A stretch of DNA of 64,000 nt from Nitrosopumilus sp. Lineage in GTDB: Archaea > Thermoproteota > Nitrososphaeria > Nitrososphaerales > Nitrosopumilaceae. Location: positions 832,001-896,000 of the forward strand of contig OY763927.2 of NCBI GenBank assembly GCA_963667665.2. The letters run 5' to 3'. Made by a program: the position numbers and the translations under genes. The notes below the pieces were generated by a model. It was not told where the DNA came from. It ran no database searches and saw nothing but the letters and a program-made list of their open reading frames with translations. Of this stretch, positions 41,169 through 63,300 are shown piece after piece (within the stretch, counting starts at the first letter, position 1; every line of letters begins with the position of its first letter).

Positions 41169-42317
41169 CTAGTTTTTTCTTTTAAGTTCCATTCTTTTTT
41201 TATCTAGTAAAAGCTCATCCAATATTTTTTTTGTTTCTAGCTGGTCTTGAGACTGTTGTTTCTTGTATTCCTCAAACTGTTTTTCAAGACTTGCAGATTT
41301 TTTTAAGCTATCATGTAATTGATTATCATGAGATATTTCAGTAAATACCGTGATTTCAGGCTCTACCATTTCATAGTAAATTTCCAACGCGTGCCTTGAT
41401 CTTCCCTTGTATTCTTTAGAGCCAGAGTATTTTTTGCCAGTGAATATTTTTTTGAAAGCTAACGGAACACCTGCTCTGTCACACGCATCATCAAACTCTT
41501 TTCTCATTCTTTTTGGTCTGAATAGTTGTTGTACACCAGGTTTCAACGTTATAGACATGTGTGAAACTCCAGTTCTAACATTAACTGAGAATTGTGCTCT
41601 GCTTAATGCATTGCCTCTTGGCAACAATTCATAATCAGATGGCGTAAAGTTTCTACCGTATTTTGTTCTGAAGGTAGCTTTTCTTTTAGCTAGCTCAGTT
41701 ACAAAAACAGGTTCATCATCAGATGCAAATTCTCGTTCTTGTTTGTAATAGCGTCTTAGTAGTCGAGTAGCTTCTTTGCTGAAAAAAGTATCAATAATCT
41801 CACCAGACTTGCTTCTAAAATCACTAATGAAAAATCGGTCATGTTGAGCCTCTTGGTATCTAACATCACCAACAGTAATTCTCAACAAATCCCCACTATC
41901 TATTCCAGAGCTTAGTGCACAAAGAAATATCACCTGATCTCTAAAATTAAAATGAGATAAAATTTCCTTGAAAAGATCCCTATCAATAATTACTTTTCTT
42001 ATTATTTGGTTGTCATCTAATTTGATTTCGATGATTTTTGTCATTGGATAATTTTTGTCAGTTGAAGCTACTTGTCGAGCTCGTATGGCAGGAGATTTGA
42101 TCTTGCCCATAGTTACGGCGTTATGGCTATAGAATCCTCTAACGGTTCCATAGATTCCAATTACAGCAGAATTATAATCTATAGTGGGTTTGTTTTTGCA
42201 ATACACAAATCCCTGGTGCAATCGTGTCTTGACTTTCCTAGGATCAATTACAGCTTCCTCGATTAACTCATCTGGATTTTTTGGGTCGTCAGATTGACTT
42301 ACAGCTTTTAAGAACAT
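41169..42317 (-). CDS. Tyrosine recombinase/integrase-like protein with atypical catalytic motifs
   Basis: RD..IF..ALSSG.D.GDLL.IT.GDV, R.KS and P..MRK.F....AG....F.G.......Y layout; the frame stays open about 48 codons upstream without an ATG. Confidence 0.75.
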   Translation of the reverse strand: MFLKAVSQSDDPKNPDELIEEAVIDPRKVKTRLHQGFVYCKNKPTIDYNSAVIGIYGTVRGFYSHNAVTMGKIKSPAIRARQVASTDKNYPMTKIIEIKLDDNQIIRKVIIDRDLFKEILSHFNFRDQVIFLCALSSGIDSGDLLRITVGDVRYQEAQHDRFFISDFRSKSGEIIDTFFSKEATRLLRRYYKQEREFASDDEPVFVTELAKRKATFRTKYGRNFTPSDYELLPRGNALSRAQFSVNVRTGVSHMSITLKPGVQQLFRPKRMRKEFDDACDRAGVPLAFKKIFTGKKYSGSKEYKGRSRHALEIYYEMVEPEITVFTEISHDNQLHDSLKKSASLEKQFEEYKKQQSQDQLETKKILDELLLDKKRMELKRKN

Positions 42318-42592
42318 TGGAAACCAGTATTCAGTGCCATAAAGCGTACCTCTAGATAATTCACCATCATTAGCATTCTCTTCTAAGCTAGTTACCCAAT
42401 TTTTGTAGGATTTGTATTCTTTGTAATTTTTTTCCTTAGATATTGTAAGATTTGCTGTTTTTTACACGTGCATAATACGGTTTTATATCTATTAAAGTTC
42501 GATGATGAGCGAACTTAATTATATTAAAGTTTAAACTTTTTTTAGATCTAAGAAACGTTAGTAATAAATCACCCAGTTTTATTGTACATGAT

Positions 42593-42880
42593 ATGGGTGA
42601 ATTAGAACACAAATTCGAAGTAGAAATTAAAGAAAGAGAAGGAATACACAAACTCCCAGAAAAGGTCAAAGACGAGATGAAATCAGGAGGAATGATGGAT
42701 GAGAAAGGAAAATTAAAACTAAAAGGTGTTAGCCCAAAAATGCTCAAAAGAATGAAACAGGAATTTGTAGAGTGCCCAGTTTTGAAAGAAGATACCCACT
42801 TCATTCAATGTTTTGTGTGTCCAAACTTCCAAAGCAGAGTCATGGGCAAAGTACTTTGTAAAGGGGATCCTCTAAAATAA
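42593..42880 (+). CDS. Hypothetical protein with C-terminal Cys motif
   Basis: ECPV...QCFVCPNF..RV.G.V.CKG. Confidence 0.75.
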   Translation: MGELEHKFEVEIKEREGIHKLPEKVKDEMKSGGMMDEKGKLKLKGVSPKMLKRMKQEFVECPVLKEDTHFIQCFVCPNFQSRVMGKVLCKGDPLK

Positions 42881-43211
42881 TCTAAAATATGGTTCTGTGA
42901 AGTTATCGGGTGCTGGGATTTCAGGCATTTAATTCCTAAATACAAAAAAAAGCGTCATGGATCTGGTGATGTTGGCATGGTTAATGTGATATTGGTCTGT
43001 TCTATTGAATCAAGGAATTGTTCGTACCACTTCGGGTCTTGTATGTAGTTGAATGGATTTTTTCACCTCCATGACGCCTTTTTCTAAAGAAAAATGGGAT
43101 TATGTGTCGTCGTTGAACTGAATGATGTATGCGTATCGCTAATGTCATCACCTCCCCGCAACTCATGCGTGGAATCGATCCGACTGTTCTGTGAAGTTAT
43201 CGATGGACCAA

Positions 43212-44342
43212 TCAGACTGAATTTCCCTTATGAAGTGAGGCGTTCTGAATGATGGTTTTCCATTTGTTTTTGCCGTCAACTTCTATGAGAGAGGCTTGAG
43301 CAAGCGTTCTGCCCTGCAATGCTGAATGTTTCTTGGTATAGTTGTAATACGCTTTCATGCCGTCAATCAACGGAGTATCGAACTTCTTTAAACCTCTAAA
43401 GACTTTCTCACGGTCTCTGATTTCGCCATTCAGGCGTTCCATCTTGTTATTGTTATCACGGTCTCTTTTGCCTGCAATGTGAATGTACCTGATATGGTTT
43501 GTTTTCTTGCCAAATACCTTTTTGGATGATTTCATGCAAGCTGGCAGTCCGTCAGTTACAAAGTGTGCTGGGTTCTTACCGATCTTCTCTTTGGTCAGCT
43601 CCAACAGCTTGTCTGCATTGTGCTGAAACTTTGTGTGTGCCATGTCACTAGCCAACCAATATCTTGTATCATCATCCATGCTTGCGAAAAGATAGACCTG
43701 TTTGCCTTTGATCTTTATCCATATCTCATCTGCACGCACCATTGTCCTGCCATTCGTTCTTGGGATGATCTCGTTGAGGTAATCAGATGTCATTTTGGAG
43801 TATTTTGCCACCCAGTTGTAGATTGTTCTGTAAGAGACTGTAATGTCTTCTTGCTCAAAACAATCCGCAATATCTCTTACTGACATTCCAGCATAGTACA
43901 TCTGAAGAGATCTTGTGATAATGACATCATCTGATCTCATTTTCTCAAATCCAAAATTAGCTGTAAACCTCTTTTTGCAGTCAAGGCAGGCATACCTTTG
44001 CACGTTGCCTTTTGCCGTCTGTCTTGTTCCGTTCTTCTTTAGTCTGCCTGAATCGCAGTATTTGCATAGTTTCAACTGTGATCTTTCCATGATTCGAAAT
44101 GTGTTGTTCTTTCTGCACTTGTTATTCTTCACTATCTCTAGTACAATTTTGATGTGCTTGCAGTCTGCCTTTCGAAACCTGTGATCAGGACATTCGCAAA
44201 CTAAACCGTTTGCCGTCTCTCTTACTGCATACCTCTTTTCAGGGTTTGTCTGTGATCTGACTGAAAATGTATTTGCATCAATCTGTGAGCAGTGACCCTG
44301 TGTTTCCATAATCTGTTTTGCTTTTTGAGTTCTTGTGTTCAT
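43212..44342 (-). CDS. IS6-family DDE transposase with N-terminal SWIM and zinc-ribbon domains
   Basis: CECPD...CKH (SWIM), CKYC...CLDC, HTH (SYRTIYNWV), ADE.W.K...MDD, VTDG and NNKMERLNG. Confidence 0.88.
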   Translation of the reverse strand: MNTRTQKAKQIMETQGHCSQIDANTFSVRSQTNPEKRYAVRETANGLVCECPDHRFRKADCKHIKIVLEIVKNNKCRKNNTFRIMERSQLKLCKYCDSGRLKKNGTRQTAKGNVQRYACLDCKKRFTANFGFEKMRSDDVIITRSLQMYYAGMSVRDIADCFEQEDITVSYRTIYNWVAKYSKMTSDYLNEIIPRTNGRTMVRADEIWIKIKGKQVYLFASMDDDTRYWLASDMAHTKFQHNADKLLELTKEKIGKNPAHFVTDGLPACMKSSKKVFGKKTNHIRYIHIAGKRDRDNNNKMERLNGEIRDREKVFRGLKKFDTPLIDGMKAYYNYTKKHSALQGRTLAQASLIEVDGKNKWKTIIQNASLHKGNSV

Positions 44343-44431
44343 ACCATACTGTACTTTTTAACTACATATATACTATACGTTTTGACTATATGTAGGAAAC
44401 AGTTATATGATAACCAAATTCATGTTTGCAT

Positions 44432-44575
44432 ATGAGCATGAAAGTAGATGGTGCATATTGGCGACACGAGTGCAATAGATGCAATGAGATTTGGTACAGT
44501 AGGAACGAATCACCAAAGAACTGCAACAACAAAAAGTGTAATTCCCCATACTGGAACAAGGAAAGGGTACGTTAG
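44432..44575 (+). CDS. Small zinc-ribbon protein (47 aa), divergent from the transposase
   Basis: MSMKVDGAYWRHECNRCNEIW...PKNCNNKKCNSPYWNKERVR. Confidence 0.65.
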   Translation: MSMKVDGAYWRHECNRCNEIWYSRNESPKNCNNKKCNSPYWNKERVR

Positions 44576-44578
44576 TTC

Positions 44579-46085
44579 ATGTCCCCTGACAAAATAATCG
44601 GGGGAGGAGCTTGCAAAAAATACCCTCTACTTTGGCGATAACCTAGACATTTTACAAAAACACATCATAGATGAATCTGTTGATCTTATCTATCTTGATT
44701 CTCCATTCAACTCAAAAGCTGCTTACAATATACTATTCAAAACACCTGACAATATTGAATCTCCTGCACAGATAACAGCTTTTGAGGATTCATGGCATTG
44801 GACTAGTGAATCAGAGCTGGCTTATGGGCAGTTATTGAATACAAGTACAACTGTCTCATCAGTGATCAGAGGTATGAGAGAAGCTATAGGTGAAAATGAT
44901 ATGATGGCGTATCTTGTCATGATGACAATCAGATTAATTGAACTGTACAGGGTTCTAAAAAATACCGGAAGTCTATATTTACACTGTGACCCTACTGCAA
45001 GTCATTATCTGAAGATAATTCTGGATGCAATCTTTCAGCCACAGAATTTTAGAAGAGAGATAATTTGGGATATTGCGGTTTTGTCAGGTTATAAAACACA
45101 GGCCAAGAACTGGATCAGGGGGCACGACACACTATTTTATTATGTAAAATCAAGTGATTTCACTTTTAATAAGCAAACTCAGCCACACAGACAAGAATAT
45201 CTTGCTCGTTTTAACAAAACTGACGAGAATGGTAAAAAATATTTTGACGGTAGAGAAAAGCGCAGATACCTCGATGATGTGGTAAAAAAAGGCAAGGCAA
45301 TAGGCGATGTCTGGTCTGATATTATGTCATTTCAACAGACGCCGACTTCAAAAGAAAGGATGGGTTATCCAACACAAAAACCACTAAGCTTACTTGAAAG
45401 AGTAATTAACTCCAGTTCAAATCAGGGTGATGTGGTATTAGATCCGTTTTGCGGATGCGGTACGGCAGTTCATGCATCTCAAAAGCTAAACCGCAGATAG
45501 ATAGGGATAGACATAACACATCTGGCTATAGGTCTTATTGAAAAGAGAATGAAGGATGCATTTGGAGTCAGCGTAGAAGTGAGGGGGACCCCCAACTCTT
45601 TTGAATCTGCAAAAGATTTGGCAAGACGCAACAAATTCCAGTTTGAGGCATGGGCAGTTACGCTAATTCCAAACGTGCTGCCAAATAGAAGACAGACAGG
45701 AGATAAAGGAATCGACGGGAGGGGATACATACAGTTGGGAACCAACAAAGATGGAAAGCGAATTGATGTCAAAATCATAGTATCTGTAAAAGGCGGAGAT
45801 AGCCTAAATCCAGGAATGGTCAGAGATTTGATTGGAACCATGGACAGTGAAAAGGCAGAACTGGGAGTCTTTGTCTGTCTGAGAGAACCTACAAGAAAGA
45901 TGAAAGAGGCAGCAGCAACAGCAGGAATATTTGAAACCCCTTTTGGGGAACAGTATCCGAAATTACAGATTTACACCATATCGGATTATTTCAAGAGAAT
46001 CAAGCCAAACCTGCCGTCACTGGCAGATTTTATCAGAGCTCCACGGTCAGAAACGGAGCCAAAAGGAAAACAGATCACGTTGTAG
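44579..46085 (+). pseudogene. N4/N6 DNA methyltransferase fused to a restriction-endonuclease-like C-terminal domain; disrupted
   Basis: NTLYFGDNL, motif IV reads DSPF (normally DPPF), YPTQKP, DPFCGCGT; frameshift near the G-run at ~44600; TAG at 45498 in NRR*IGID; C-terminal GDKGIDG...SVKGG. Confidence 0.85.
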
Positions 46086-46135
46086 GATGTTTGATGACAT
46101 TATGGCCATGCCTCAAAACTCAGCTCTAGATAACT

Positions 46136-46777
46136 TCACATAACCCCATTTTGTAATTTTTCAGAATCTACAAATTTGGCAACGCCTATTGAAGAGTATT
46201 GATCAGCACGTAATGTACCTTCTAAACCCGATTGTATAGCAAAACCCGCATCATTAAACAAATTGAAATTAGCTATCGGGAATGAAGAATACTCATGTAA
46301 GTATAATAACCAATTATCCTGTTGAGTTCCTCGCTTTATTTCAAAATTTAACGTATCACCAACATCAAAATCATGTAAAATAGTATATTCACTATATTGA
46401 TTAGTCATTATAGTGTCGTCATAGTAATTATAAGCATAGTATACTTTCTCATCTGCAATACAAGCATCACCAATACCATCCCTATCTACATCATTAAATT
46501 CACCTTGTGTAACTCCAAACTCAATCCATTCGTTATCAGATAAAATAATCCATTGCGTAGCTACTGCAACATTAGTAAGACAATCATCAGATTTGATAAA
46601 CATATCAGGTACATGAAGTTGATATTTTATACCTTGAAAAGATGGAGGAGTTATTGATTCACTTGTTTGAGCATAACAATGAGGTGAAATACATAAAGAC
46701 GCATCTGCATATTGCATCCCTACAAACCCAATACTAACTACAAAGATTAATGAAAAAACAAAAAAGAGGTTATTCAG
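46136..46777 (-). pseudogene. Secreted protein (neprosin-like motif), C-terminally cut by the IS right IR
   Basis: Signal peptide from a probable CTG at 46777; C..PHCY and EWIEFGVTQG; stop codon lies inside the IR. Confidence 0.6.
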
Positions 46778-49068: not shown

Positions 49069-49222
49069 AGTCACATCTATTATCAAATTTGATAATACGT
49101 ATAGCCATTACTGATGATTACGATATTCGTATTTGTATAATATTGAGAGATTATTTTTGTTGAGATTCAAATCTATAGAGGCATGAACTATTATTGGAAA
49201 AAAAGATGGTATTAAACTAGAA

Positions 49223-50170
49223 TTGATAACAACATCTCTACCATTCTCAAATTCAAAAACAATTCATAGTGAAAGAATTTTTTCAACAGATAATGCAATA
49301 AAGAAAAACTTGTCATTACAATCAGAACAATTTGCATTTACACTAGATAAGTTATCAGCTGAAGACATTGTTTTTTCAAAAACTCAAATAAATGAATCTC
49401 TAAAAGGAAACTATATTTTTTCAATTGACGTGTATTCAGTAAATTCAGATGTACTTATTCCTGAATCAAAACTAATCATTGGAGGTAAAGCTTTTGGAAT
49501 AATGGGAACTGATGAATTAAGACGTGATTTAGCGATAGGATTGTTGTGGGGTACGCCACTTGCATTGTTTATTGGCATTGTTGTTGCAATTGCATCAGTC
49601 GTTATGGGATTACTCTACGGAGTATATGCAGGATTCAAGGGCAAAAAAACAGATGAGACAATGATGAGATTTAATGATGTAATCTATGCATTGCCAGTAC
49701 TTCCATTTCTCATCATACTTTCAGTGACAATTAGTAATAGCATATTTGTGATGGTTGGATTTTTGATGATGTTTGGGTGGGTAGGAATTGCAAAAGTATC
49801 AAGAAGTATGTCACTTCAAATCAAGACTCGAGGCTATGTTGAAGCTGCAAACATGATGGGGCAAAAAGACTCCAAAATAATTCTCAAGCACATCGTACCA
49901 CAATTACTGCCTTATGCATTTGCAAGTATTGCAATATCAGTTCCTGCTGCAATCACTACAGAAGCTGGTCTTAGTTTTTTGGGATTAGGTGATCCATCGT
50001 TTCCAACATGGGGGCAAATACTACATGATGCAAATACATTTGGTGCAGCAGCAAGAGGATTATGGTGGTGGATAATGCCCCCAGGAGTAATGATTGCCAT
50101 TACTGGTCTTGCATTTGTCTTTATTGGTAATGCACTTGATGTAATAGTGAATCCAAAGTTAAAACGATAA
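49223..50170 (+). CDS. Peptide ABC transporter permease (DppC/OppC type), probably 5'-truncated
   Basis: GTDELRRD, YVEAA..MG...II.KHI.P and EAGLSFLGLG...TWG motifs; starts mid-domain without an N-terminal TM. Confidence 0.8.
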   Translation: MITTSLPFSNSKTIHSERIFSTDNAIKKNLSLQSEQFAFTLDKLSAEDIVFSKTQINESLKGNYIFSIDVYSVNSDVLIPESKLIIGGKAFGIMGTDELRRDLAIGLLWGTPLALFIGIVVAIASVVMGLLYGVYAGFKGKKTDETMMRFNDVIYALPVLPFLIILSVTISNSIFVMVGFLMMFGWVGIAKVSRSMSLQIKTRGYVEAANMMGQKDSKIILKHIVPQLLPYAFASIAISVPAAITTEAGLSFLGLGDPSFPTWGQILHDANTFGAAARGLWWWIMPPGVMIAITGLAFVFIGNALDVIVNPKLKR

Positions 50171-50175
50171 TAAAA

Positions 50176-50493
50176 TTAGAGGTCAAATTTTCGAATTAAT
50201 TCAATAGCACCATCATTCAATTTTATTGAATAGCAGAATGAATTTTCATCATTGAATGCTGCCAACTTGTTAGCAAATACTTTTTTGCTGTGACCGCCAT
50301 ATGATGCTGTGTCTGATTCATCAAAGCAAATAGTCATTTGTTTCATTTTAAGATTATTTTTTAGAAGAAAAGCAATGAACTTTTTGTAATTTTCAGTAAC
50401 AAACCAGTCTATATTTTTTTCTTGACTTGCTCCAATCCATATCTCAATAGAGTTTTGGTATAGAACCTTTTTTCTTAATTCTTCTAATGCCAT
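50176..50493 (-). CDS. Hypothetical protein
   Basis: Start MALEELRKK at 50493. Confidence 0.65.
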   Translation of the reverse strand: MALEELRKKVLYQNSIEIWIGASQEKNIDWFVTENYKKFIAFLLKNNLKMKQMTICFDESDTASYGGHSKKVFANKLAAFNDENSFCYSIKLNDGAIELIRKFDL

Positions 50494-50506
50494 CTTTCTT
50501 TCACAA

Positions 50507-50830
50507 TTAAAAATCAGCACGTTGCATCTTTGATCCACATCGTGGACAAGTACCGCCTTTGTGTTTGTTGTTACAAACTAGACAAACATATTTTACTTTA
50601 CCAGAACCGTCTTGTGAACCCATTCCAAAGAACCCACCACCTCTTGTTTCAGAATCACCGCCATAACCACGCATACGATTCATGTATCGTCTTCTTAGAA
50701 ATAATGGAAATGCAATAAAAATTCCTAGTGCAGCTGCTAAACCATATGGAAATGGAAGAACCATTTGTAATCCAATACTAATAACTAGTGAAGCAGCTAA
50801 GAAAACCAAATAAGACTTGTAATTAAACAA
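50507..50830 (-). CDS. Membrane protein with C-terminal zinc ribbon
   Basis: Two TMs, Gly-rich linker, CLVC...CPRCGS. Confidence 0.75.
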   Translation of the reverse strand: MFNYKSYLVFLAASLVISIGLQMVLPFPYGLAAALGIFIAFPLFLRRRYMNRMRGYGGDSETRGGGFFGMGSQDGSGKVKYVCLVCNNKHKGGTCPRCGSKMQRADF

Positions 50831-51084
50831 TTCATTAAAAGTATCTTAAAAAAGGTTATAAAGCTTTGTCAGTATTTTTTGGATTTTTCATGAAGCATTT
50901 TACAAATTTTGTATAATTGAAAGAGGGATAGAATTTCCACTACTATCCCATGCAAAAATTGAATCATCATCATATGGAATTCTTTTTTGTACATTTTTGT
51001 TACTTTATCTGATGTGAATTTACCGCCAGTTGAGAATCCTCCTAGTTTGGAACAGTGTAATGTCACTAGTAGTGTTGTTGTTTC

Positions 51085-51263
51085 GGGGTCTGTAAATGCC
51101 TCTACGACACTATGACCTAAAAGTTGTTTGGCGTATGGTTCTGTAGCTTCTAATCTTTGTTGTCTACGCCAGGTTTGTCAAACATGGGCTAAGAAAATTT
51201 TGGCCACCTTTCTCATCGCTCTGTTGTGAAGATGACCGTCATTAAAGTACGTCTTTCCTCTAA
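51085..51263 (-). pseudogene. C-terminal remnant of a Nop-domain IS110/Tas-like protein
   Basis: GKTYFNDGHLHNRAMRKVAKIFLAHV*QTWRRQQRLEATEPYAKQLLGH; internal stop at 51178-51180; 5' end replaced by a CRISPR repeat. Confidence 0.65.
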
Positions 51264-51367
51264 GTTTCAATCTTTATTGTAATAGAAATCTATTCAGAGC
51301 AGGAAAAAGAACCCTTCAAGGCTATCGTACAACTGTTTCAATCTTTATTGTAATAGAAATCTCAGAG
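51264..51367 (-). CRISPR. CRISPR mini-array: 2 repeats (second with a 3-bp deletion) and one 35-bp spacer
   Basis: GTTTCAATCTTTATTGTAATAGAAATCTATTCAGAG at 51264-51299 and a degenerate copy at 51335-51367; minus strand ends in ATTGAAAC. Confidence 0.85.
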
Positions 51368-51413
51368 TTTGATCGCTAGATTTTTAATCAACGTGATTCT
51401 AGAAATATTAATA

Positions 51414-52273
51414 ATGGAAAAACATCAAAAATACAAATTGCTAGTATTTTCACAGTATGTGCTATACTGATTGGAGGTATTGGGGATATACAAGCCGAAG
51501 AACAAAAACCAGATATTAAAAAGGTAATAAAAGAAATTTCAAAAGAGTTACGAGAATACGTCAAAGATGAATCTCCACTAAAAGAGGATGAATCTACAAA
51601 AATACAAGAGATAAAATCTGAATATTCAGATAAACTTGATACTGTATTTGAGTTAGTTTTATCAAATTCAAATATTGATTATTCTGTTGGAACAGATCTA
51701 GAAAAAGACACTTTGAAAAAACTCTTGATTCAAGAAGAACTCAAATGGCAAAAAATAGATTTCTATGATAGTAAATTAGAATCTAAACTAAACACACAGT
51801 CATTTGATTGGTTATTACCTTCTGCATATGCATCACACAATAGTTGTGCATCACAACAAGAGGTACAATACTTCAAACAGGTAACTGTAGATATTACTGG
51901 CCAGAGTGGTTTTGAGGGTGGAAATCAACTATTCAATGTAGCTAGAACTTTGTTATCTGATTGTTCTGTAAAATATACTTTATCTTTTCTAGATGAAGAT
52001 CATCCTATACCTTGGATTGACTCTTGGTATGATGATGTCAGAATGGATGTATATGGAAGAATTACAGATATAGAGACATTTTATGTTGATGATGATCAAA
52101 TTGAATTTATAGGTGTGTGGAGTGACGAACAAACATTTTATAAATTAATACCTCTTCATTATACTTCTGAGATGTCTTTCCAAAACACTGTCTATGTAAG
52201 TAACACCTGGAGTCATATGATGAGTACAGAAGATACAAATCCTTCAATGTGGAAGACTACGCATGTCTTTTAA
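51414..52273 (+). CDS. Secreted protein A (paralog of 53647..54524); 1-bp frameshift right after the start codon
   Basis: Frame open from 51416 with a signal peptide (KIQIASIFTVCAILIGG..IQA); ATG at 51414 is out of frame; DEDHP..D..YD..R..YGRI.D.ETF...NTW.H. Confidence 0.7.
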
Positions 52274-52339
52274 CATTTCTTTTTTTTTAGAATAATTAAT
52301 GCAATAGTAATTCTTGTATTTGCAGTATTTTTAGGATTT

Positions 52340-52552
52340 TTGGGATTAATCGGTGGTGAGTTGTTTTTCTTTTCTCAGAAATTGTTTGGTTATTGGTTAG
52401 TTGGTTATCTATGTGTCATGATTTGTACAGCCACAATACTATCTCTTACACAATTGTACAATATCAAGCAAAGTGACAAGTTTAGCATTATTTGGCATGT
52501 ATTATTTTTTGGAATTTGGATTATAGGAAATAAAATATATGTGCCAGCATAA
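52340..52552 (+). CDS. Small membrane protein, partner of protein A; true start probably further upstream
   Basis: Hydrophobic; C-terminus W.V.F..WII.N.I..PA shared with 52799..53095. Confidence 0.55.
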   Translation: MGLIGGELFFFSQKLFGYWLVGYLCVMICTATILSLTQLYNIKQSDKFSIIWHVLFFGIWIIGNKIYVPA

Positions 52553-52649
52553 CCCTAATTAACTTACAGACGATTGAATGATCCTAATAAAAATATAAAA
52601 GTCTGAAATAATAATAGACGGTAACTAATTATCTGATCGTAACTGATAA

Positions 52650-52811
52650 ACTATTTTTCTCAATAAGATTAATTTTAGCGTAAATAAGGATGGTTCAATA
52701 TTTGGTTCTACCCCAGAAATAACTACCTCATCTAATACTGTGACATATAAAGAAGTATTTGATGCTGTTGGTGAGAATACAAGTATGAGTAAATTCACAT
52801 GGGTTTACTGA
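52650..52811 (+). pseudogene. Possible C-terminal remnant of a third secreted-protein paralog
   Basis: Ends ...ENTSMSKFTWVY*, compared with DTNPSMWKTTHVF* (A) and DNNSGLTKYIRYF* (B). Confidence 0.4.
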
Positions 52812-53095
52812 CCTTCTTTTTCTATTTTCGTAAAATATCTGCAGTAATTCAAATTTTACTATCATCACCACTGCTATTTTTCATAATAATCAATGCTGAG
52901 ACTTGGGCATTTTGTGAAAAATTCAATGGTAATGATGCTAGATTAATTGTGATGCCGCTAACAATTGCCGGAATAATTATCGGTATACTATCTTTGAAAT
53001 ATATGAAAAAAGTTGATATTTTGGTCATATCCTGGTATGTTGTGTTTATCATTTGGATCATCAGTAACAGAATATGTATGCCAGCATACCTCTAA
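52799..53095 (+). CDS. Small membrane protein, paralog of 52340..52552
   Basis: Three hydrophobic segments; shared C-terminal motif. Confidence 0.6.
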   Translation: MGLLTFFFYFRKISAVIQILLSSPLLFFIIINAETWAFCEKFNGNDARLIVMPLTIAGIIIGILSLKYMKKVDILVISWYVVFIIWIISNRICMPAYL

Positions 53096-53154
53096 TACGA
53101 CTTGCAAGAGGTAATAGTAGGTGTGCTGACGGTAACCTAAAGGTCACCTATAAT

Positions 53155-53546
53155 GTTTCAATCTTTATTGTAATAGAAATCTATTCAGAGATCATCCTCT
53201 TCCTTGATCTGTTTTGATACAAACTGTTTCAATCTTTATTGTAATAGAAATCTATTCAGAGGGAGAAGTATGGAAGAATCGAGTGAAGCCATTAGGGTTT
53301 CAATCTTTATTGTAATAGAAATCTATTCAGAGTAGACCAATTTTACCAAAGCAATTGGTAACCATAAAGTTTCAATCTTTATTGTAATAGAAATCTATTC
53401 AGAGACACTTGACTTATTTCCCATTTTATTGTCTGGGAAGTTTCAATCTTTATTGTAATAGAAATCTATTCAGAGAGGAGCAATAGGAAGTCAAGCGTTA
53501 AGAACATTAGGTTTCAATCTTTATTGTAATAGAAATCTATTCAGAG
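53155..53546 (-). CRISPR. CRISPR array: 6 identical 36-bp repeats and 5 unique spacers (35,35,36,35,35 bp); no cas genes in window
   Basis: Repeats start at 53155, 53226, 53297, 53369, 53440 and 53511; same repeat as the 51264 mini-array. Confidence 0.97.
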
Positions 53547-53646
53547 ACTCAGGTCGTCCTCCTGTATAGATAGTAAGAATATTGTCTTATTCTATATAAT
53601 GATAATTTGGGATCATTTCAAATATTACTAATTTTTGGATATGTTA

Positions 53647-54524
53647 ATGACTAAAAACAATATCAAAATCTTATTGTTTGCATCTTTGATAGCGTAATGA
53701 TTCTACCATTTTCAATGATAGATAATGCAGATGCCAAAACTGATGAAAAATCTGTAAAGGATTTACTTAAAGATGTAAGTAATGAAGCAAAAGAATATGT
53801 CAAACAAGATGAAAAGGATAAATCTAAAGATGAAAAAAAGGATGAATTAAAAATAAAGTATGACAACAAATTAGATAAAGTACGAGAGAAACTTGAAGAG
53901 CAAACTGGTTATATGTTAAATGAAGAACAAACATCCAAATTTAACAACTATGTAATCAATGAAATTATAAAACGTACTGAAATTGAACAGGCATACTTAT
54001 CTAATGACATTCAAGTAACTGAAACTTTAGAAATTGATGGCTTTTGGAATATTATTCCATATGTACAAGCAACAACAAATCAATATCCAATATCAGAATT
54101 TGTTCAACCATTAGTTGATGTAACTGGTGGTTCTGGTTTGAGTGGATTTGTTTACTATAATGTAAATGGTGATAACCAACTAATTGGTGTTGATAAGATA
54201 ATTTCATCCAGTCAAAGTATGACTAGATATGTCTTAGAATGGCAAGATGAAGATGATCCAAATCCAACGCTTGATGCAATATATGACCAATACAGATTAC
54301 AACATTTTGGACGAATTGCTGATGTTGAAACATTTGTAGTTCTTGATGGTCAAATCCAATTTGATGGGATTTGGGATCAAGGAAATGGATATGGCATATC
54401 AGCTCATGGTGATAAAACAAGAACTTGGTCTAATGGTGTAACTATCTATGCCAATACTTGGAATCATGCACTTGACATATATGATAACAATTCAGGATTG
54501 ACGAAATACATTAGGTATTTCTAA
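53647..54524 (+). CDS. Secreted protein B (paralog of A); 1-bp frameshift within the signal peptide
   Basis: MTKNNIKILLFASLIA then a frame change to MILPFS..ADA; DEDDP..D..YD.YR...FGRIADVETF...NTWNH. Confidence 0.75.
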
Positions 54525-54541
54525 TCCTTTCTTTTTTTATT

Positions 54542-54853
54542 TTGAATCTAAAGAAAATTTTATTATTTGTACTATTACCACTTCAAGGAATTTTGTTATC
54601 TTTAATAGTACGTGAAATAATTATTATTCCAATTTCAGGTGAGCCTCATTTTCTATTTCAGGTGTGGTTTTTCTTTAATTTTCTTGCAAATACCATTTTT
54701 GGTATATTATACATGCCATTTTTTTTTGAAAGAGATTGGTACCAGTATGATTGGTTTACAATTCCAACATTATCTATATTATCAAATTTGATATTTTGGC
54801 TTCCTATTGCATATGTTTTTCGTAACATATTCTCTAAATCTCATAATTCTTAA
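54542..54853 (+). CDS. Small membrane protein following protein B
   Basis: Three hydrophobic segments; starts right after a T-tract. Confidence 0.6.
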   Translation: MNLKKILLFVLLPLQGILLSLIVREIIIIPISGEPHFLFQVWFFFNFLANTIFGILYMPFFFERDWYQYDWFTIPTLSILSNLIFWLPIAYVFRNIFSKSHNS

Positions 54854-55985: not shown

Positions 55986-56271
55986 AGACTCCATATTGTT
56001 GTGATTTTCTATCCCAATAGCTTGGGTTCTCTGTGTATTTTTCACCAATCACAAGGCCTACATCAAGAAGATCATCCACCAAATTATCAAATATATCATT
56101 AATTGTTATATATTTCACACTTTCAAATTTACACTCATTAATCATCTTGATGTCTTTAGTGACTATAATCAAATTATTATCTTTGGCAAACTTTACAATC
56201 TCTGGGTCGTCTGCTGTTCTATCTGGGCATTTATCATCCACTACTTTACAATATTCCACACGGTTTTTCAA
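55984..56271 (-). pseudogene. Mut7-C/DUF5615-type PIN-domain fragment
   Basis: DDPEIVKFAKDNNLIIVTKD motif; the N-terminal hhhD strand is missing. Confidence 0.55.
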
Positions 56272-56527
56272 AAAGTTGGAAAAAAGGGCGTTTAGTGACG
56301 AGTTTTGACCTGTTTTTGAACAGTCGTCACTAGACTCGTCACTAGAAACTTAAATATGATATACGTATTTTTCCGATAATGTTATATGTATTGTCAGTAA
56401 AACCGTGTTTTAGTTTTCCAAAAGAAGAGATCTTATGCTCGTCTTAATGATAATAGTTCTTTGGAACAATTCCAATCAGGAATTGAGCCGAAAAAGTATG
56501 AGGAAAGGTAAAATGCGAAAAAAGGCC

Positions 56528-56760
56528 AAAGACCGGATCTATCATAAAAAGTGGGTTGAGATTGGCAAATATGTTGGTAAAATAGCCTATTTTGGTACTT
56601 TTTGGGCTAATATCATGACATGGTGACATAAAGACCGGTCTAAAGACCGGATCCATTCGAAAATCTCAACAAAGACCGGTTTAATGACTGGATCCATTCG
56701 AAAATCTCAACAAAGACCGGATCCAAAGACCGGGTCTACCAAAAAATGTCAACAAGACAC
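56528..56760. repeat. Iteron-like cluster of AAAGACCGG (6 exact copies) including a 31-bp direct repeat
   Basis: Copies at 56528, 56630, 56642, 56671, 56712 and 56725; GGATCCATTCGAAAATCTCAACAAAGACCGG at 56649 and 56690. Confidence 0.85.
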
Positions 56761-56999
56761 CCTACAAACAGTGCATAAACAATATGTTTCAGGTTCAAAC
56801 GCGATTACGAGATAATCATACTTTTCTCTATTATGTATCCAGATAGCATATACGTATTGAAGACATGTAGAAATTCTCCATCCCAATAACTGTCACACTT
56901 TTCGCCTCAGCAGGATACATCGCGTTAACTGATCTTAGTTGGGATCTTTCCAGGATATCCATACTCATGATTCATTGATTGGATCCCAACCTAAAATGG

Positions 57000-57254
57000 T
57001 CATCTGGTGTCTTGAAAGCATCTTGTGCAGTTTTTCTGCGCCGTGACATCGGTGTTGCAATGCATGCACTGCACCAGCACGGCTCGCATCTGGTTGGGTC
57101 TGAATATCTTCACTGTGTCAGTGTCTATCCGTACTGGTTCTTCCTTATTCCAACAGGAATGACACAGCAGGTGCTCCATGTACATGTAATTGTATAGTAC
57201 GGCATAATCACTTTCATGACTACATCTCTTGAGTTTGGGGATGCAGTCAGTCAA
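57000..57254 (-). CDS. Small multi-Cys zinc-finger protein
   Basis: C.H...Y...Y...CHSC, CMHC and CTRC. Confidence 0.5.
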   Translation of the reverse strand: MTDCIPKLKRCSHESDYAVLYNYMYMEHLLCHSCWNKEEPVRIDTDTVKIFRPNQMRAVLVQCMHCNTDVTAQKNCTRCFQDTR

Positions 57255-57391
57255 AACTTGGGTACAATTCCATCAACTGGCTAAATGTTTCTGAGGATGT
57301 GTGTGTAATTGAGCAATTTTGAATATTGTCGCTAATTTTCACTTTGAGCTCGATCAGTTACCGTGCAGGCATTTCCGTGACAGACAGACAG

Positions 57392-60300
57392 TCAGTCATG
57401 CTCAAGCACGTACTGTAGTGCCAGCATGAACTCGTCGACTGTGACGGTACCCTTTGCGACCAGCACCCCAAGCTCTGTCATCATCCAGTCCGGTATGTCG
57501 GCGCCCTGATGGTCATCAAGACCCAAAAGCTCAAGCAGTTGCTCATCAGTTATGGATTCTGACTCAAAGCCTGACCACATGCGTATGATCTGCAGAATCT
57601 GTGTGTCATCGTAATCATCGGGCCCCAGTATGTCATAGGGTACAGGTTCCGGATCTGCGGCATCATCTGCAAAGTCCGGTGTTACAGGTTCGGGGTCTGC
57701 TGGGAGTACGGAGTCAGGTTCGAGAGGTTCGGGGTCTGCTGCCTGCATGGCAGATTCCGGCGATGCTGCTACCACCTCAAGGGCGTCAATTATCTTGACG
57801 AATAAGGCCTCTCTGTCCGTATTCCACATGTATGCGACCATGTTGGTGGGGCCCATCGGCTCCTCTCCAAACTCTATGGTTATGCGAACGGTCCTCTTTT
57901 CAGGTATCGAGTCGTCCTCCTGTGTTACAGTAACTGTGGCACTGCCGATGTATCCGTGCGGGTCAGTGACACTGGTTGTACCGTCGTCTTTGTACGTGAT
58001 GTATGTGTCGCTGTCCGCATAATTTGTGTTCCTGCCTTGCAAGTTAAGATACAATATAAAGTGTGCAAACTCCTTCTCTGTGTATACGGTAAACGTGATA
58101 TGTACTGGATTGTCCCCTGCCGTGACAGTCTGAGGTATTAATGTGTTTTCATAAGCATCAAGTAGGTAGCCGTAGCCGTTTATCACAAGCGGAAGGTCAA
58201 AGGTATCATCAGGTGTGATAGGTTCCAGCGGGTCAGATGCATCGTGGGATGCGACCTGTTCTGCGATGTGTGGCGGAATATCAACTAGCCTTGACTGTGC
58301 CAGCGCGTTTATGTGCACTATTGATGCCTTGGATGATGGTGATGATGATGATCCTTTCTGAGAGGCGTCCCTTATGGGTTGGGGCTGCACATCCGTTGTC
58401 CGGTCACCGTCAGTGTCTGTTACAGCGCCGTCCTCAACAACAAGATGCGGGCTTTGCAGGGCATCGTACTGATCTTGTTGTTCAGAGTCAAGTGTTGCAG
58501 TTATGGTACGACCCGAGTAATCTGCACCTGTTACGCTTGAGAGCGTAATGCCGCCAGTATCAGGGTTTGCGCTGCTGCGCACGTGCAGCCCGGAATAGTC
58601 GACGGTGGCAATATCTTGGTTGAATGTAATCGTCAGCTGTCCATTGCCGGGGTTGTACGCGGCAGACGATACCGTTATGGGCACATCGCGCACGGTAACA
58701 GTAATGGTATAGGTCTTAGTCGTAGAGTCCTGGGCAGTAACTATTACCGTGACGGTGGTGGGCTCGCCCACAGTCAGGCCGGTGACGATGTGACCGGTGC
58801 CGCTGGTCACAGTGTTGCCGTTGACTGTTATTGCAGCCGAGCTGTCGCTGGCAGTGGGGGTGACTGTCACCTGGGTGACAGAGTTATCCACGCTGGCAGT
58901 GTACGTGATGTCAGAGCTGGAAAACTGCGGGCTCAGCGTGCCAGAACTGATCGTCAGGCCGCCAAGGTCGGCGTTGTCAGAGAGGGCAGCACGTGTAAGG
59001 GTAATGATATAGGTCTTAGTCGTAGAGTCCTGGGCAGTAACTATTACCGTGACGGTGGTGGGCTCGCCCACAGTCAGGCCGGTGAGGATGTGACCGGTGC
59101 CGCTGGTCACGTGTTGTCGTTGACTGTTATTGCAGCCGAGCTGTCGCTGGCAGTGGGGGTGACTGTCACCTGGGTGACAGAGTTATCCACGCTGGCAGTG
59201 TACGTGATGTCAGAGCTGGAAAACTGCGGGCTCAGCGTGCCAGAACTGATCGTCAGGCCGGCAAGGTCGGCGTTGTCAGAGAGGGCAGCACGTGTAAGGG
59301 TAATGATGTAGGTCTTAGTCGTAGAGTCCTGGGCAGTAACTATTACCGTGACGGTGTTGGCTCGCCCACAGTCAGGCCGGTGACGATGTGACCGGTGCCG
59401 CTGGTCACGTGTTGTCGTTGACTGTTATTGCAGCCGAGCTGTCGCTGGCAGTGGGGGTGACTGTCACCTGGGTGACAGAGTTATCCACGCTGGCAGTATA
59501 CGTGATGTCAGAGCTGGAAAACTGCGGGCTCAGCGTGCCAGAACTGATCGTCAGGCTGCCAAGGTCTGCGTTGTCGGAGAGGGCAGCACGTGTAAGGGTA
59601 ATGGTGTAGGTCTTAGTCGTAGAGTCCTGGGCGGTAACTATTACCGTGACGGTGTTAGGCTCGCCCACAGTCAGGCCGGTGACGATGTAGTCATTGCCGC
59701 TGGTCACGTCGTTGCCGTTGACTGTTATTGCAGCCGAGCTGTCGCTGGCAGTGGGGGTGACTGTCACCTGGGTGACAGAGTTATCCACGCTGGCAGTGTA
59801 CGTGATGTCAGAGCTGGAAAACTGCGGGCTCAGCGTGCCAGAACTGATCGTCAGGCCGGCAAGGTCGGCGTTGTCGGAGAGGGCAGCACGTGTAAGGGTA
59901 ATGGTGTAGGTCTTAGTCGTAGAGTCCTGGGCGGTAACTATTACTGTGACGGTGTTAGGCTCGCCCACATTCAGGCCGGTGACGATGTAGTCATTGCCGC
60001 TGGTCACGATGTTGCCGTTGACTGTTATTGCAGCCGAGCTGTCGCTGGCAGTGGGGGTGACTGTCACCTGGGTGACAGAGTTATCCACGCTGGCAGTATA
60101 CGTGATGTCAGAGCTGGAAAACTGCGGGCTCAGCGTGCCAGAACTGATCGTCAGGCTGCCAAGGTCTGCGTTGTCGGAGAGGGCAGCACGTGTAAGGGTA
60201 ATGGTGTAGGTCTTAGTCGTAGAGTCCTGGGCGGTAACTATTACTGTGACGGTGTTAGGCTCGCCCACATTCAGGCCGGTGACGATGTAGTCATTGCCGC

Positions 60301-63300
60301 TGGTCACGTGTTGCCGTTGACTGTTATTGCAGCCGAGCTGTCGCTGGCAGTGGGGGTGACTGTCACCTGGGTGACAGAGTTATCCACGCTGGCAGTATAC
60401 GTGATGTCAGAGCTGGAAAACTGCGGGCTCAGCGTGCCAGAACTGATCGTCAGGCCGGCAAGGTCGGCGTTGTCAGAGAGGGCAGCACGTGTAAGGGTAA
60501 TGATATAGGTCTTAGTCGTAGAGTCCTGGGCAGTAACTATTACCGTGACGGTGGTGGGCTCGCCCACAGTCAGGCCGGTGAGGATGTGACCGGTGCCGCT
60601 GGGCACGATGTTGTCGTTGACTGCTATTGTGGCTGAGCTGTCGCTGGCAGTGGGGGTGACTGTCACCTGGGTGACAGAGTTATCCACGCTGGCAGTGTAC
60701 GTGATGTCAGAGCTGGAAAACTGCGGGCTCAGCGTGCCAGAACTGATCGTCAGGCCGGCAAGGTCGGCGTTGTCAGAGAGGGCAGCACGTGTAAGGGTAA
60801 TGATATAGGTCTTAGTCGTAGAGTCCTGGGCAGTAACTATTACCGTGACGGTGGTGGGCTCGCCCACAGTCAGGCCGGTGACGATGTGACCGGTGCCGCT
60901 GGTCACGATGTTGTCGTTGACTGTTATTGCAGCCGAGCTGTCGCTGGCAGTGGGGGTGACTGTCACCTGGGTGACAGAGTTATCCACGCTGGCAGTGTAC
61001 GTGATGTCAGAGCTGGAAAACTGCGGGCTCAGCGTGCCAGAACTGATCGTCAGGCCGCCAAGGTCTGCGTTGTCGGAGAGGGCAGCACGTGTAAGGGTAA
61101 TGGTATAGGTCTTAGTCGTAGAGTCCTGGGCAGTAACTATTACCGTGACGGTGTTAGGCTCGCCCACAGTCAGGCCGGTGACGATGTAGTCATTGCCGCT
61201 GGTCACGTCGTTGCCGTTGACTGTTATTGCAGCCGAGCTGTCGCTGGCAGTGGGGGTGACTGTCACCTGGGTGACAGAGTTATCCACGCTGGCAGTGTAC
61301 GTGATGTCAGAGCTGGAAAACTGCGGGCTCAGCGTGCCAGAACTGATCGTCAGGCCGCCAAGGTCTGCGTTGTCGGAGAGGGCAGCACGTGTAAGGGTAA
61401 TGGTATAGGTCTTAGTCGTAGAGTCCTGGGCGGTAACTATTACTGTGACGGTGTTAGGCTCGCCCACATTCAGGCCGGTGACGATGTAGTCATTGCCGCT
61501 GGTCACGTCGTTGCCGTTGACTGTTATTGCAGCCGAGCTGTCGCTGGCAGTGGGGGTGACTGTCACCTGGGTGACAGAGTTATCCACGCTGGCAGTATAC
61601 GTGATGTCAGAGCTGGAAAACTGCGGGCTCAGCGTGCCAGAACTGATCGTCAGGCTGCCAAGGTCTGCGTTGTCGGAGAGGGCAGCACGTGTAAGGGTAA
61701 TGGTGTAGGTCTTAGTCGTAGAGTCCTGGGCGGTAACTATTACTGTGACGGTGTTAGGCTCGCCCACAGTCAGGCCGGTGACGATGTAGTCATTGCCGCT
61801 GGTCACGTCGTTGCCGTTGACTGTTATTGCAGCCGAGCTGTCGCTGGCAGTGGGGGTGACTGTCACCTGGGTGACAGAGTTATCCACGCTGGCAGTGTAC
61901 GTGATGTCAGAGCTGGAAAACTGCGGGCTCAGCGTGCCAGAACTGATCGTCAGGCTGCCAAGGTCTGCGTTGTCGGAGAGGGCAGCACGTGTAAGGGTAA
62001 TGGTGTAGGTCTTAGTCGTAGAGTCCTGGGCGGTAACTATTACCGTGACGGTGTTAGGCTCGCCCACAGTCAGGCCGGTGACGATGTAGTCATTGCCGCT
62101 GGGCACGATGTTGCCGTTGACTGTTATTGCAGCCGAGCTGTCGCTGGCAGTGGGGGTGACTGTCACCTGGGTGACAGAGTTATCCACGCTGGCAGTGTAC
62201 GTGATGTCAGAGCTGGAAAACTGCGGGCTCAGCGTGCCAGAACTGATCGTCAGGCTGCCAAGGTCTGCGTTGTCGGAGAGGGCAGCACGTGTAAGGGTAA
62301 TGGTGTAGGTCTTAGTCGTAGAGTCCTGGGCGGTAACTATTACCGTGACGGTGTTAGGCTCGCCCACATTCAGGCCGGTGACGATGTGAGTCGGTGCCGC
62401 TGGGCACGATGTTGCCGTTGACTGTTATTGCAGCCGAGCTGTCGCTGGCAGTGGGGGTGACTGTCACCTGGGTGACAGAGTTATCCACGCTGGCAGTGTA
62501 CGTGATGTCAGAGCTGGAAAACTGCGGGCTCAGCGTGCCAGAACTGATCGTCAGGCTGCCAAGGTCTGCGTTGTCGGAGAGGGCAGCACGTGTAAGGGTA
62601 ATGATGTAGGTCTTAGTCGTAGAGTCCTGGGCGGTAACTATTACTGTGACGGTGTTAGGCTCGCCCACATTCAGGCCGGTGACGATGTGACCGGTGCCGC
62701 TGGTCACGATGTTGTCGTTGACTGTTATTGCAGCCGAGCTGTCGCTGGCAGTGGGGGTGACTGTCACCTGGGTGACAGAGTTATCCACGCTGGCAGTGTA
62801 CACGATGTCAGAGCTGGAAAACTGCGGGCTCAGCGTGCCAGAACTGATCGTCAGGCCGCCAAGGTCTGCGTTGTCAGAGAGAGGTGCGGCACGTGTAAGG
62901 GTAATGGTGTAGGTCTTAGTCGTAGAGTCCTGGGCGGTAACTATTACTGTGACGGTGTTGGTGCCCACATTCAGGCCGGTGACGATGTGACCGGTGCCGC
63001 TGGGCACGATGTTGTCGTTGACTGTTATTGCAGCCGAGCTGTCGCTGGCAGTGGGGGTGACTGTCACCTGGGTGACAGAGTTATCCACGCTGGCAGTGTA
63101 CGTGATGTCAGAGCTGGAAAACTGCGGGCTCAGCGTGCCAGAACTGATCGTCAGGCCGGCAAGGTCGGCGTTGTCGGAGAGGGCAGCACGTGTAAGGGTA
63201 ATGGTGTAGGTCTTAGTCGTAGAGTCCTGGGCGGTAACTATTACTGTGACGGTGTTGGTGCCCACATTCAGGCCGGTGACGATGTGACCGGTGCCGCTGG

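Follow-up and report, generated by a model that had tools for sequence, protein, structure and literature searches.

The window, as we call the stretch of DNA analysed here, comprises 64,000 nt of a Nitrosopumilus sp. genome (G000:C1:832001-896000; genome of 1.89 Mb in 2 contigs, 99.97% complete). Between 51264 and 54853 it holds two CRISPR array pieces, interleaved with two paralogs of a secreted-protein family, A and B, and with small membrane genes. The genome carries four such paralogs (A, B, C and D) and a third array. The features that matter for what follows are listed below, in window coordinates unless contig C1 is named.

51264-51367, minus strand (sense of the CRISPR RNA, crRNA): CRISPR array piece 1 (array 1), one complete repeat, one spacer of 35 nt and one repeat that lacks 3 nt
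51414-52273, plus strand: paralog A, a likely pseudogene, with its ATG at 51414 and an open reading frame (ORF) at 51416-52273
52340-52552, plus strand: memA, a small membrane ORF of 70 aa whose C-terminus is like that of memA2
52799-53095, plus strand: memA2, a small membrane ORF of 98 aa that ends 59 bp before array 2
53155-53546, minus strand (crRNA sense): CRISPR array piece 2 (array 2), six identical 36-nt repeats and five unique spacers of 35-36 nt
53647-54524, plus strand: paralog B, with its ATG at 53647 and a remaining ORF at 53697-54524 that has no signal peptide
54542-54853, plus strand: memB, a hydrophobic ORF of 103 aa, the small membrane partner of B
C1:16242-16570: array 3, five repeats
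C1:18795-19718, minus strand: paralog C, 2.2 kb from array 3 and followed by two small membrane ORFs
C1:594176-594775: paralog D, truncated, with 9 stops across the match

A first reading of the window from its letters alone (the sequence-only reading) had noticed that the two pieces share one 36-bp repeat, with two copies from 51264 and six from 53155, and this was confirmed. The repeat, GTTTCAATCTTTATTGTAATAGAAATCTATTCAGAG on the plus strand, starts at 51264, 53155, 53226, 53297, 53369, 53440 and 53511; these seven complete copies are 100% identical, and the copy at 51335 (51335-51367) has lost 3 nt (ATT). Its 28-nt core matches the window 8 times, against 0 matches in 100 dinucleotide-preserving shuffles. 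The six window spacers are 35-36 nt long and all different. Two arrays had been counted, which is right for the window; genome-wide there are three loci, as array 3 lies 867 kb from the window arrays, with one A-to-C change in each of its repeats and four spacers of 35-41 nt. The total is thus 13 repeats in 3 clusters with 10 unique spacers of 35-41 nt (1, 5 and 4 in arrays 1, 2 and 3) at a repeat spacing of 71-77 nt, and blastn detected no further repeat copy or convincing fragment elsewhere in the genome. The repeats are near-identical, direct, regularly spaced and within the 23-47 nt expected of CRISPR arrays, and the spacers are unique and of uniform length: these pieces are genuine cas-less class 1 CRISPR arrays. 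None of the CRISPR-DR families in Rfam matches the repeat, whose RNA is unstructured on both strands (z-scores -0.07 to -0.5).

That the repeats are of class 1 had been proposed earlier and is borne out by their kinship to the type I-B array of a relative, G386. A 26-nt core of the repeat occurs in 6 of 150 other Nitrosopumilus genomes (76 copies in G386, 3 in G411, 2 in G195 and 1 each in G291, G274 and G406). All six carry Cas1, which is present in 59 of the 150 overall, with many copies of casposase size. In G386 a 76-repeat array, whose 37-nt repeat is identical over its first 26 nt, directly follows Cas3, Cas5b, Cas7/Csh2, a 571-aa protein, Cas1 and Cas4. The lone repeat of G274 adjoins a truncated Cas1, an IS630 transposase and then a complete type I-B operon with Cas3, Cas5b, Cas7, Cas8b1 and Cas6; three degenerate repeats in G411 lie 6-10 kb from homologs of Cas1, Cas6 and Cas8b; and G195 has a mini-array of two repeats, with an array of 58 copies of a different 30-nt repeat 4.7 kb away, together with Cas1. 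Judged by these neighbouring genes, the repeat family is tied to type I-B loci, and outside G386 it persists mostly as fossils. With the loci of G386, G274 and G411 the arrays of this genome share 26 of the 36 repeat nt, including the ATTGAAAC end on the crRNA strand, and spacers of ~35-40 nt; they differ in having no cas genes, no conserved leader and their own last 10 repeat nt, which are specific to this genome.

The G386 locus also fixes the orientation. Its leader lies between cas4 and the array, so that the transcribed repeat ends in ATTGAAAC, and the crRNA sense in the window is therefore the minus strand. The leader side is then to the right of each window piece, where A and B lie, and the degenerate repeat is leader-proximal in the small piece, just as the sequence-only reading had presumed. 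When the sequences flanking the three local arrays were compared among themselves and with the G386 leader, nothing in common emerged. In G386 itself (L044:13999-19594 onward) the arrays of 37-nt and 30-nt repeats stand back to back, with a type I-B cas module on either side, and this double-array locus is part of a 32-kb island. The G386 CRISPR-Cas island maps to ~C1:21400 in our genome, ~5 kb from array 3 and beyond three core genes; the loci of G274, G291 and G195 map elsewhere in it and show no synteny with the arrays.

To the absence of cas genes from the window, seen earlier, we can add their absence from the genome: profiles for Cas1, Cas2 and Cas6 gave 0 matches in the whole 1.89 Mb, window included, while the same searches were positive in 7, 6 and 4 of 14 control genomes. 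Looking for the repeat and for cas1 and cas6 across the genome and its relatives, which had been suggested at the outset, thus yielded the third array and the core in six other genomes and left this genome without cas1 or cas6. When 20 cas-locus proteins from two congeners were compared with the genome by tblastn, a single match was obtained, at C1:1103499-1104393, broken into three frames (44-48% identity over ~300 residues, E 4e-29). The query was the 571-aa protein encoded at the large-subunit position in the operon of G386. We read the match, which is the genome's sole trace of cas genes, as a putative relic of an operon since lost. The type I-B gene set (Cas1/2/4, Cas6, Cas5-7-8 and Cas3) is not found here, and with the cognate cas cluster absent from a genome of this completeness the arrays are orphans.

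The reading that we favour, with a probability of roughly 0.64, is that these are remnants of orphan type I-B arrays decaying in flexible islands of a sponge-associated Nitrosopumilus after loss of the cas operon. A lineage with a type I-B system would have lost its cas genes while the arrays stayed behind in flexible islands, where the lack of Cas1-Cas2 would stop their growth and the lack of Cas6 and Cascade would make them unusable. Island turnover (insertion, duplication, deletion and recombination between strains) would then have cut up and re-flanked them; we infer this order of events, with cas loss first and fragmentation second. The cassettes of secreted and membrane protein would be independent island cargo, also decaying and without joint function with the repeats. 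Their position next to the arrays would come from both having remained in the same small number of hyper-variable islands, on the leader side, which is the usual place of cas genes. As array 3 has its own repeat variant, it was a separate array. Arrays 1 and 2 share a repeat variant and an orientation, and it is possible that they were once one array. The earlier suggestion that a single array was split by a gene block fits these two traits, but no unsplit version of arrays 1 and 2 was seen.

Taken alone this would be an ordinary case, since orphan arrays are common: a survey of bacteria put them at 12% of CRISPRs and their average size at 8 repeats (Bernheim et al. 2020, NAR, PMC7145637). Our arrays resemble them in having no cas cluster, in being short (2, 6 and 5 repeats) and in that repeats are typed by likeness to a Cas-linked array. 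They differ in that a 1.8-kb block of genes lies inside one locus, in that all three pieces stand beside one gene family, and in the archaeal host. CRISPR-Cas has been reported in sponge Thaumarchaeota, including sponge-associated Nitrosopumilus (PMC6697440).

Two other kinds of cas-less array were compared. The spacers were searched for targets: all 10 matched only the arrays themselves in their own genome, with no second copy, so that the comparison suggested earlier came back empty, and against the cas loci of relatives (59 loci, 323 kb) they gave only chance matches of at most 13 nt. Almendros et al. reportedly described, in 2016, anti-cas orphan arrays of E. coli; the present arrays are like these in having been kept after cas loss, and an anti-cas role has no support, as 0 of the 10 spacers match those loci. 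Medvedeva et al. are said to have described, in 2019, mini-CRISPR arrays borne by viruses and plasmids, which depend on host Cas with matching repeats. Arrays of this kind, carried by an integrated mobile element for conflict between elements and with the cassettes as element cargo, would resemble ours in being very short (1, 5 and 4 spacers) and without adjacent cas genes, and in lying in mobile-element-rich DNA, since the islands here hold an integrase-like gene, transposases and restriction-modification genes. Several observations nevertheless make this origin very unlikely: the host has no Cas system to co-opt, no virus or plasmid hallmark gene adjoins the arrays, and the integrase-like gene is 9 kb off and scores 25.2 bits against a Pfam cut-off of 27.1. 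Moreover, the repeat core is absent from IMG/VR and from the metagenome contigs of the Joint Genome Institute (JGI), in searches made with the core and not with the spacers, and none of 50,697 phage records matched array 2 or array 3 (neither array 1 nor its spacer was part of that search).

We then turned to population data, in the form of Logan contigs, which are built on a 31-mer graph and report presence only. The stretch was found in 15 public runs from 5 studies, sponge metagenomes included. That the interleaving was made by the assembler as a chimeric path through strain variants could be argued from k-mer depths that vary several-fold along the stretch in runs X1 and X5 and from the existence of alternative joins. 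Against this, the junction between the degenerate repeat and A is bridged in 3 of 3 DNA runs from 3 studies (X1, X5 and X8), by contigs that extend 34 letters or more to either side, and array 1, the 5' part of A, memA2 and the first repeat of array 2 stand together on a single X8 contig. The remaining junctions are reached to 26-29 letters into the terminal repeat, the maximum that a 31-mer graph allows and not bridging by the rule used. An assembly artefact is accordingly extremely improbable. Of the two junctions singled out for checking by the sequence-only reading, the one at 51367 is therefore bridged, while the one at 53155 is reached only. A joint in X1 between 53715 and 54516, with 22 letters on one side only, was disregarded.

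The same contigs reveal variation between strains. On one X8 contig, 51333-52015 is connected to 52758-53180 through 204 letters of other sequence where this genome has 742 (52016-52757), indicating that in that strain memA and the 3' part of A are replaced. In X5 and X11, a contig joins at 51956 with different upstream sequence, and both breakpoints, 52016 and 51956, fall at the conserved region that encodes DEDHP. Contigs also diverge at 51059, 53151 and 53551, and at the two ends of array 2 different sequences abut the terminal repeats within 3-5 nt in other strains. Of eight loose-end motifs looked up in the genome, one corresponds to the paralogous copy at C1:788859, whereas the other seven do not occur there and hence belong to other strains or organisms. 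Contigs of the RNA library X11 cover 51426-51588, 51956-52262 and 53658-54470 and none of the arrays, from which neither transcription nor silence follows.

Each array piece had been described as followed by a secreted-protein paralog and then a small membrane gene. The arrangement stands, with 46 bp between the end of array 1 (51367) and the ATG of A (51414), 100 bp between the end of array 2 (53546) and the ATG of B (53647), and a common motif in A and B (invariant D-E-D-x-P, YD, R, RI.D.E, F, W, H and NTW.H), but neither gene is intact. In A the ATG and the ORF are out of register by one base, at an A5 run. In B, comparison with an intact G411 gene of 75% identity places a 1-nt gap near 53693, in the signal-peptide region, which causes a frameshift; a shift at an A5 run was considered for B too and rejected in favour of this gap. 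Both frameshift sites are covered without gaps by contigs from 3 DNA runs of 3 studies, showing that they are not assembly errors. Paralog C has an unrelated N-terminus and no signal peptide (the idea that this N-terminus is a piece of an integrase found no Pfam support), and paralog D abuts a methylase fragment and a transposase. Measured against intact homologs, all 4 local paralogs are thus defective, and none of the four cassette copies has a working signal peptide or start. With adjacent genes that are pseudogenes and no Cas6 in the genome, the proposal of regulatory arrays processed in trans has no support.

Among the 150 other Nitrosopumilus genomes, 35 contain the secreted-protein family, many of them with multiple copies and fragments of it; intact homologs are 290-313 aa long, start with ATG and have a typical signal peptide. 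At 10 of 10 relatives' loci examined a small hydrophobic ORF starts 5-68 nt downstream, which argues that the two-gene module is real and conserved. It can be described as a signal peptide, a helical N-domain and a beta-rich DEDxP/NTWxH C-domain, followed by a membrane ORF of 60-230 aa. A profile search with the family gave 361 representatives at E <= 0.001, and the C-terminal domain is also present in giant proteins with FG-GAP, CARDB and TSP3 repeats, which points to a probable extracellular role. An AlphaFold model of the secreted protein (predicted local distance difference test score, pLDDT, 76) consists of a helical N-domain and a beta-rich C-domain. The protein has no Pfam or PADLOC match, its clusters in the protein atlas are all 'hypothetical', and the model found no usable match in the PDB by Foldseek (best E 0.13) or in a wide VIA-align search (best Z 5.9, helical part only). 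As a guess, the gene arrangement would suit a factor that is secreted and a partner or immunity protein in the membrane, and the cassette might serve at the surface, in host interaction or in competition.

Several findings weigh against the view that the arrays are simply decaying remnants. The name cas8 for the 571-aa gene of G386, on which the supposed relic depends, is given because of its operon position only; the protein has no family match and no likeness to the Cas8b (Cas8b1) of G274. For no spacer was a protospacer found (arrays 2 and 3 only in the phage records, all 10 spacers in the relatives' cas loci). The seven identical repeats imply that decay is recent or that the repeats are still constrained. 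Contigs bearing the repeat and fitting two or more places number 125 of 163 in X1 and 89 of 109 in X5, versus 12 of 26 in X8; this genome should yield about a dozen repeat contigs, so X1 and X5 have about ten times more, a count that error variants at high depth may inflate. Two spacer-like loose ends were tested and both are absent from the genome. The sponge holobionts therefore probably hold many more spacers on this repeat, and a Cas-bearing carrier of it may coexist in X1 and X5.

The last of these points, together with the perfect conservation of the repeats, would be expected if the arrays were used in trans by Cas machinery outside the assembly, whether plasmid-borne, viral or encoded in an island that varies between strains of the population, and use of distant arrays in trans is documented (PMC7145637). 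Such use seems improbable to us, given that the chromosome is essentially complete and the second contig has ordinary, housekeeping-type ORFs, that no Cas6 or Cascade gene was detected by profile or tblastn, that there is no recognisable conserved leader and that only 46 bp separate the last repeat of array 1 from the next gene.

The adjacency of arrays and cassettes also has to be weighed against decay by itself. Relevant here are the position of three of the 4 paralogs, no more than 2.2 kb from an array piece, and the finding that at least 2 of the 3 independent cassette loci are no further than 2.3 kb from an array locus, which under uniform placement, with A and B counted as one locus, has P = 1.1e-4. 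More than pure chance is needed, at the least shared residence in an island. The sequence-only reading had proposed that the repeats are hot spots of recombination or insertion at which these modules are shuffled; in the version weighed here they would also capture the cassettes and behave somewhat like the cassette boundaries of an integron. Support for this is limited: the proximity just described, with a third array near a third paralog; the direct repeats that bracket the block of A, memA and memA2 (the only one with repeats at both its borders, unlike B and C); and the contigs of other strains that diverge 3-5 nt outside the ends of array 2, where both flanks tested are absent from the genome. 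In G406 a lone repeat lies 11.4 kb from a cassette, the nearest such pair in any other genome.

Beyond this genome the association dissolves. Among 29 cassette loci of 29 other genomes, none has a CRISPR-like array or the repeat core within 1.5 kb (a lone 9-mer at one of them is taken as chance); no family member lies within 10 kb of the repeat remnants of G274, G291 and G195; and in the 5 other genomes that have both repeat and family, none are within 3 kb of each other. The sequence-only reading had held that a lack of association elsewhere would leave chance adjacency in a rearranged island, and outside this genome that lack is what we find. In addition, the orientation of the cassettes relative to the repeats differs between the loci, A and B diverging from the leader side and C converging on it; A and B are only 31-32% identical and so are not recent copies spread by repeats; there is no Cas1, and no recombinase within 9 kb of the arrays, as integron-like boundaries would call for. 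Boundaries at repeats are also partly methodological, as contigs from a 31-mer graph break at every repeat. Hot-spot capture is thus unlikely, and a mechanistic link between array and cassette beyond this genome is not supported. A limited literature search turned up no report of arrays interleaved with this cassette. A softer version, in which repeats that outlive their cas genes serve as portable homology sites where strains swap cassettes, would explain both the strain-specific flanks at the array ends and the position of three of the four cassettes beside arrays; we regard it as quite doubtful. Overall, the earlier interpretation is partly supported.

If the arrays are indeed decaying orphans, they would mark a recent loss of type I-B in a host-associated ammonia-oxidising archaeon, and would provide a record of how a CRISPR locus disintegrates, with fragmentation, re-flanking and the loss of all cas genes but one relic. 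The many extra spacers in the same holobionts would make gain and loss of immunity testable at strain level. The locus also exposes a genus-wide two-gene cassette without a name, multi-copy, variable between strains and often broken.

The surroundings of the window arrays are those of an island, in which between 44000 and 62000 only 49204-50978 has DNA homologs among 40 relatives. The features are:

41169-46085, no strand given: mobile and defence cargo of the same island, comprising an integrase-like gene, a DDE transposase, a methylase and an endonuclease-like gene
41169-42317: integrase-like gene, at the sub-threshold Pfam score given above
43212-44342: DDE transposase
44835-46085: N6/N4 methylase and restriction-endonuclease-like gene
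49205-51062, no strand given: mosaic left flank of array 1, made of duplicated segments

The mosaic begins with a 1774-bp duplicate (49205-50978) of G000:C1:782261-784034 at 99.9% identity, whose window copy contains a 5'-truncated ABC permease gene and two small ORFs. It continues with a 97% copy (50964-51062) of C1:788763-788861, and ~200 unique bases then precede array 1. The two segments overlap by 15 bp in the window (50964-50978) and are 4.7 kb apart at the other locus. A pseudogene fragment at 50872-51261 on the minus strand, considered as a piece of an integrase, had no Pfam support and is instead part of this mosaic of duplicated segments. The stretch that holds array 3 and cassette C, which ends at C1:19765, likewise lacks conservation in relatives. 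Two small ORFs on the leader side of array 3, at C1:16913-17332 (L024:8914-9333), have DNA homologs of 76% identity in G291 and G386, where they are outside the CRISPR locus; this is the only part of the array 3 island with DNA homologs.

Other repeated sequences were noted in passing. The methylase/endonuclease segment, 44002-46145, is 100% identical to C1:1867664-1870688 and C1:1814828-1817852, and both of these copies contain an extra insert of ~878 bp that matches a multi-copy insertion sequence. A tandem array of 30-bp period at C1:1478689-1478958 has 12-nt chance matches to the repeat and is not of this CRISPR family. The island also encodes cadherin-like surface proteins: at 56265-58977 and 57392-60307 lies a segment repeated at 96-98% at C1:539247, C1:3872, C1:288201 and 892785, which codes for proteins of cadherin-like beta-sandwich repeats, seemingly split into several ORFs (56265-60307). 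Finally, within this segment the repeat finder detected three tandem copies of ~41 nt (AAAGACCGG...TCTCAAC) at 56526-56753.

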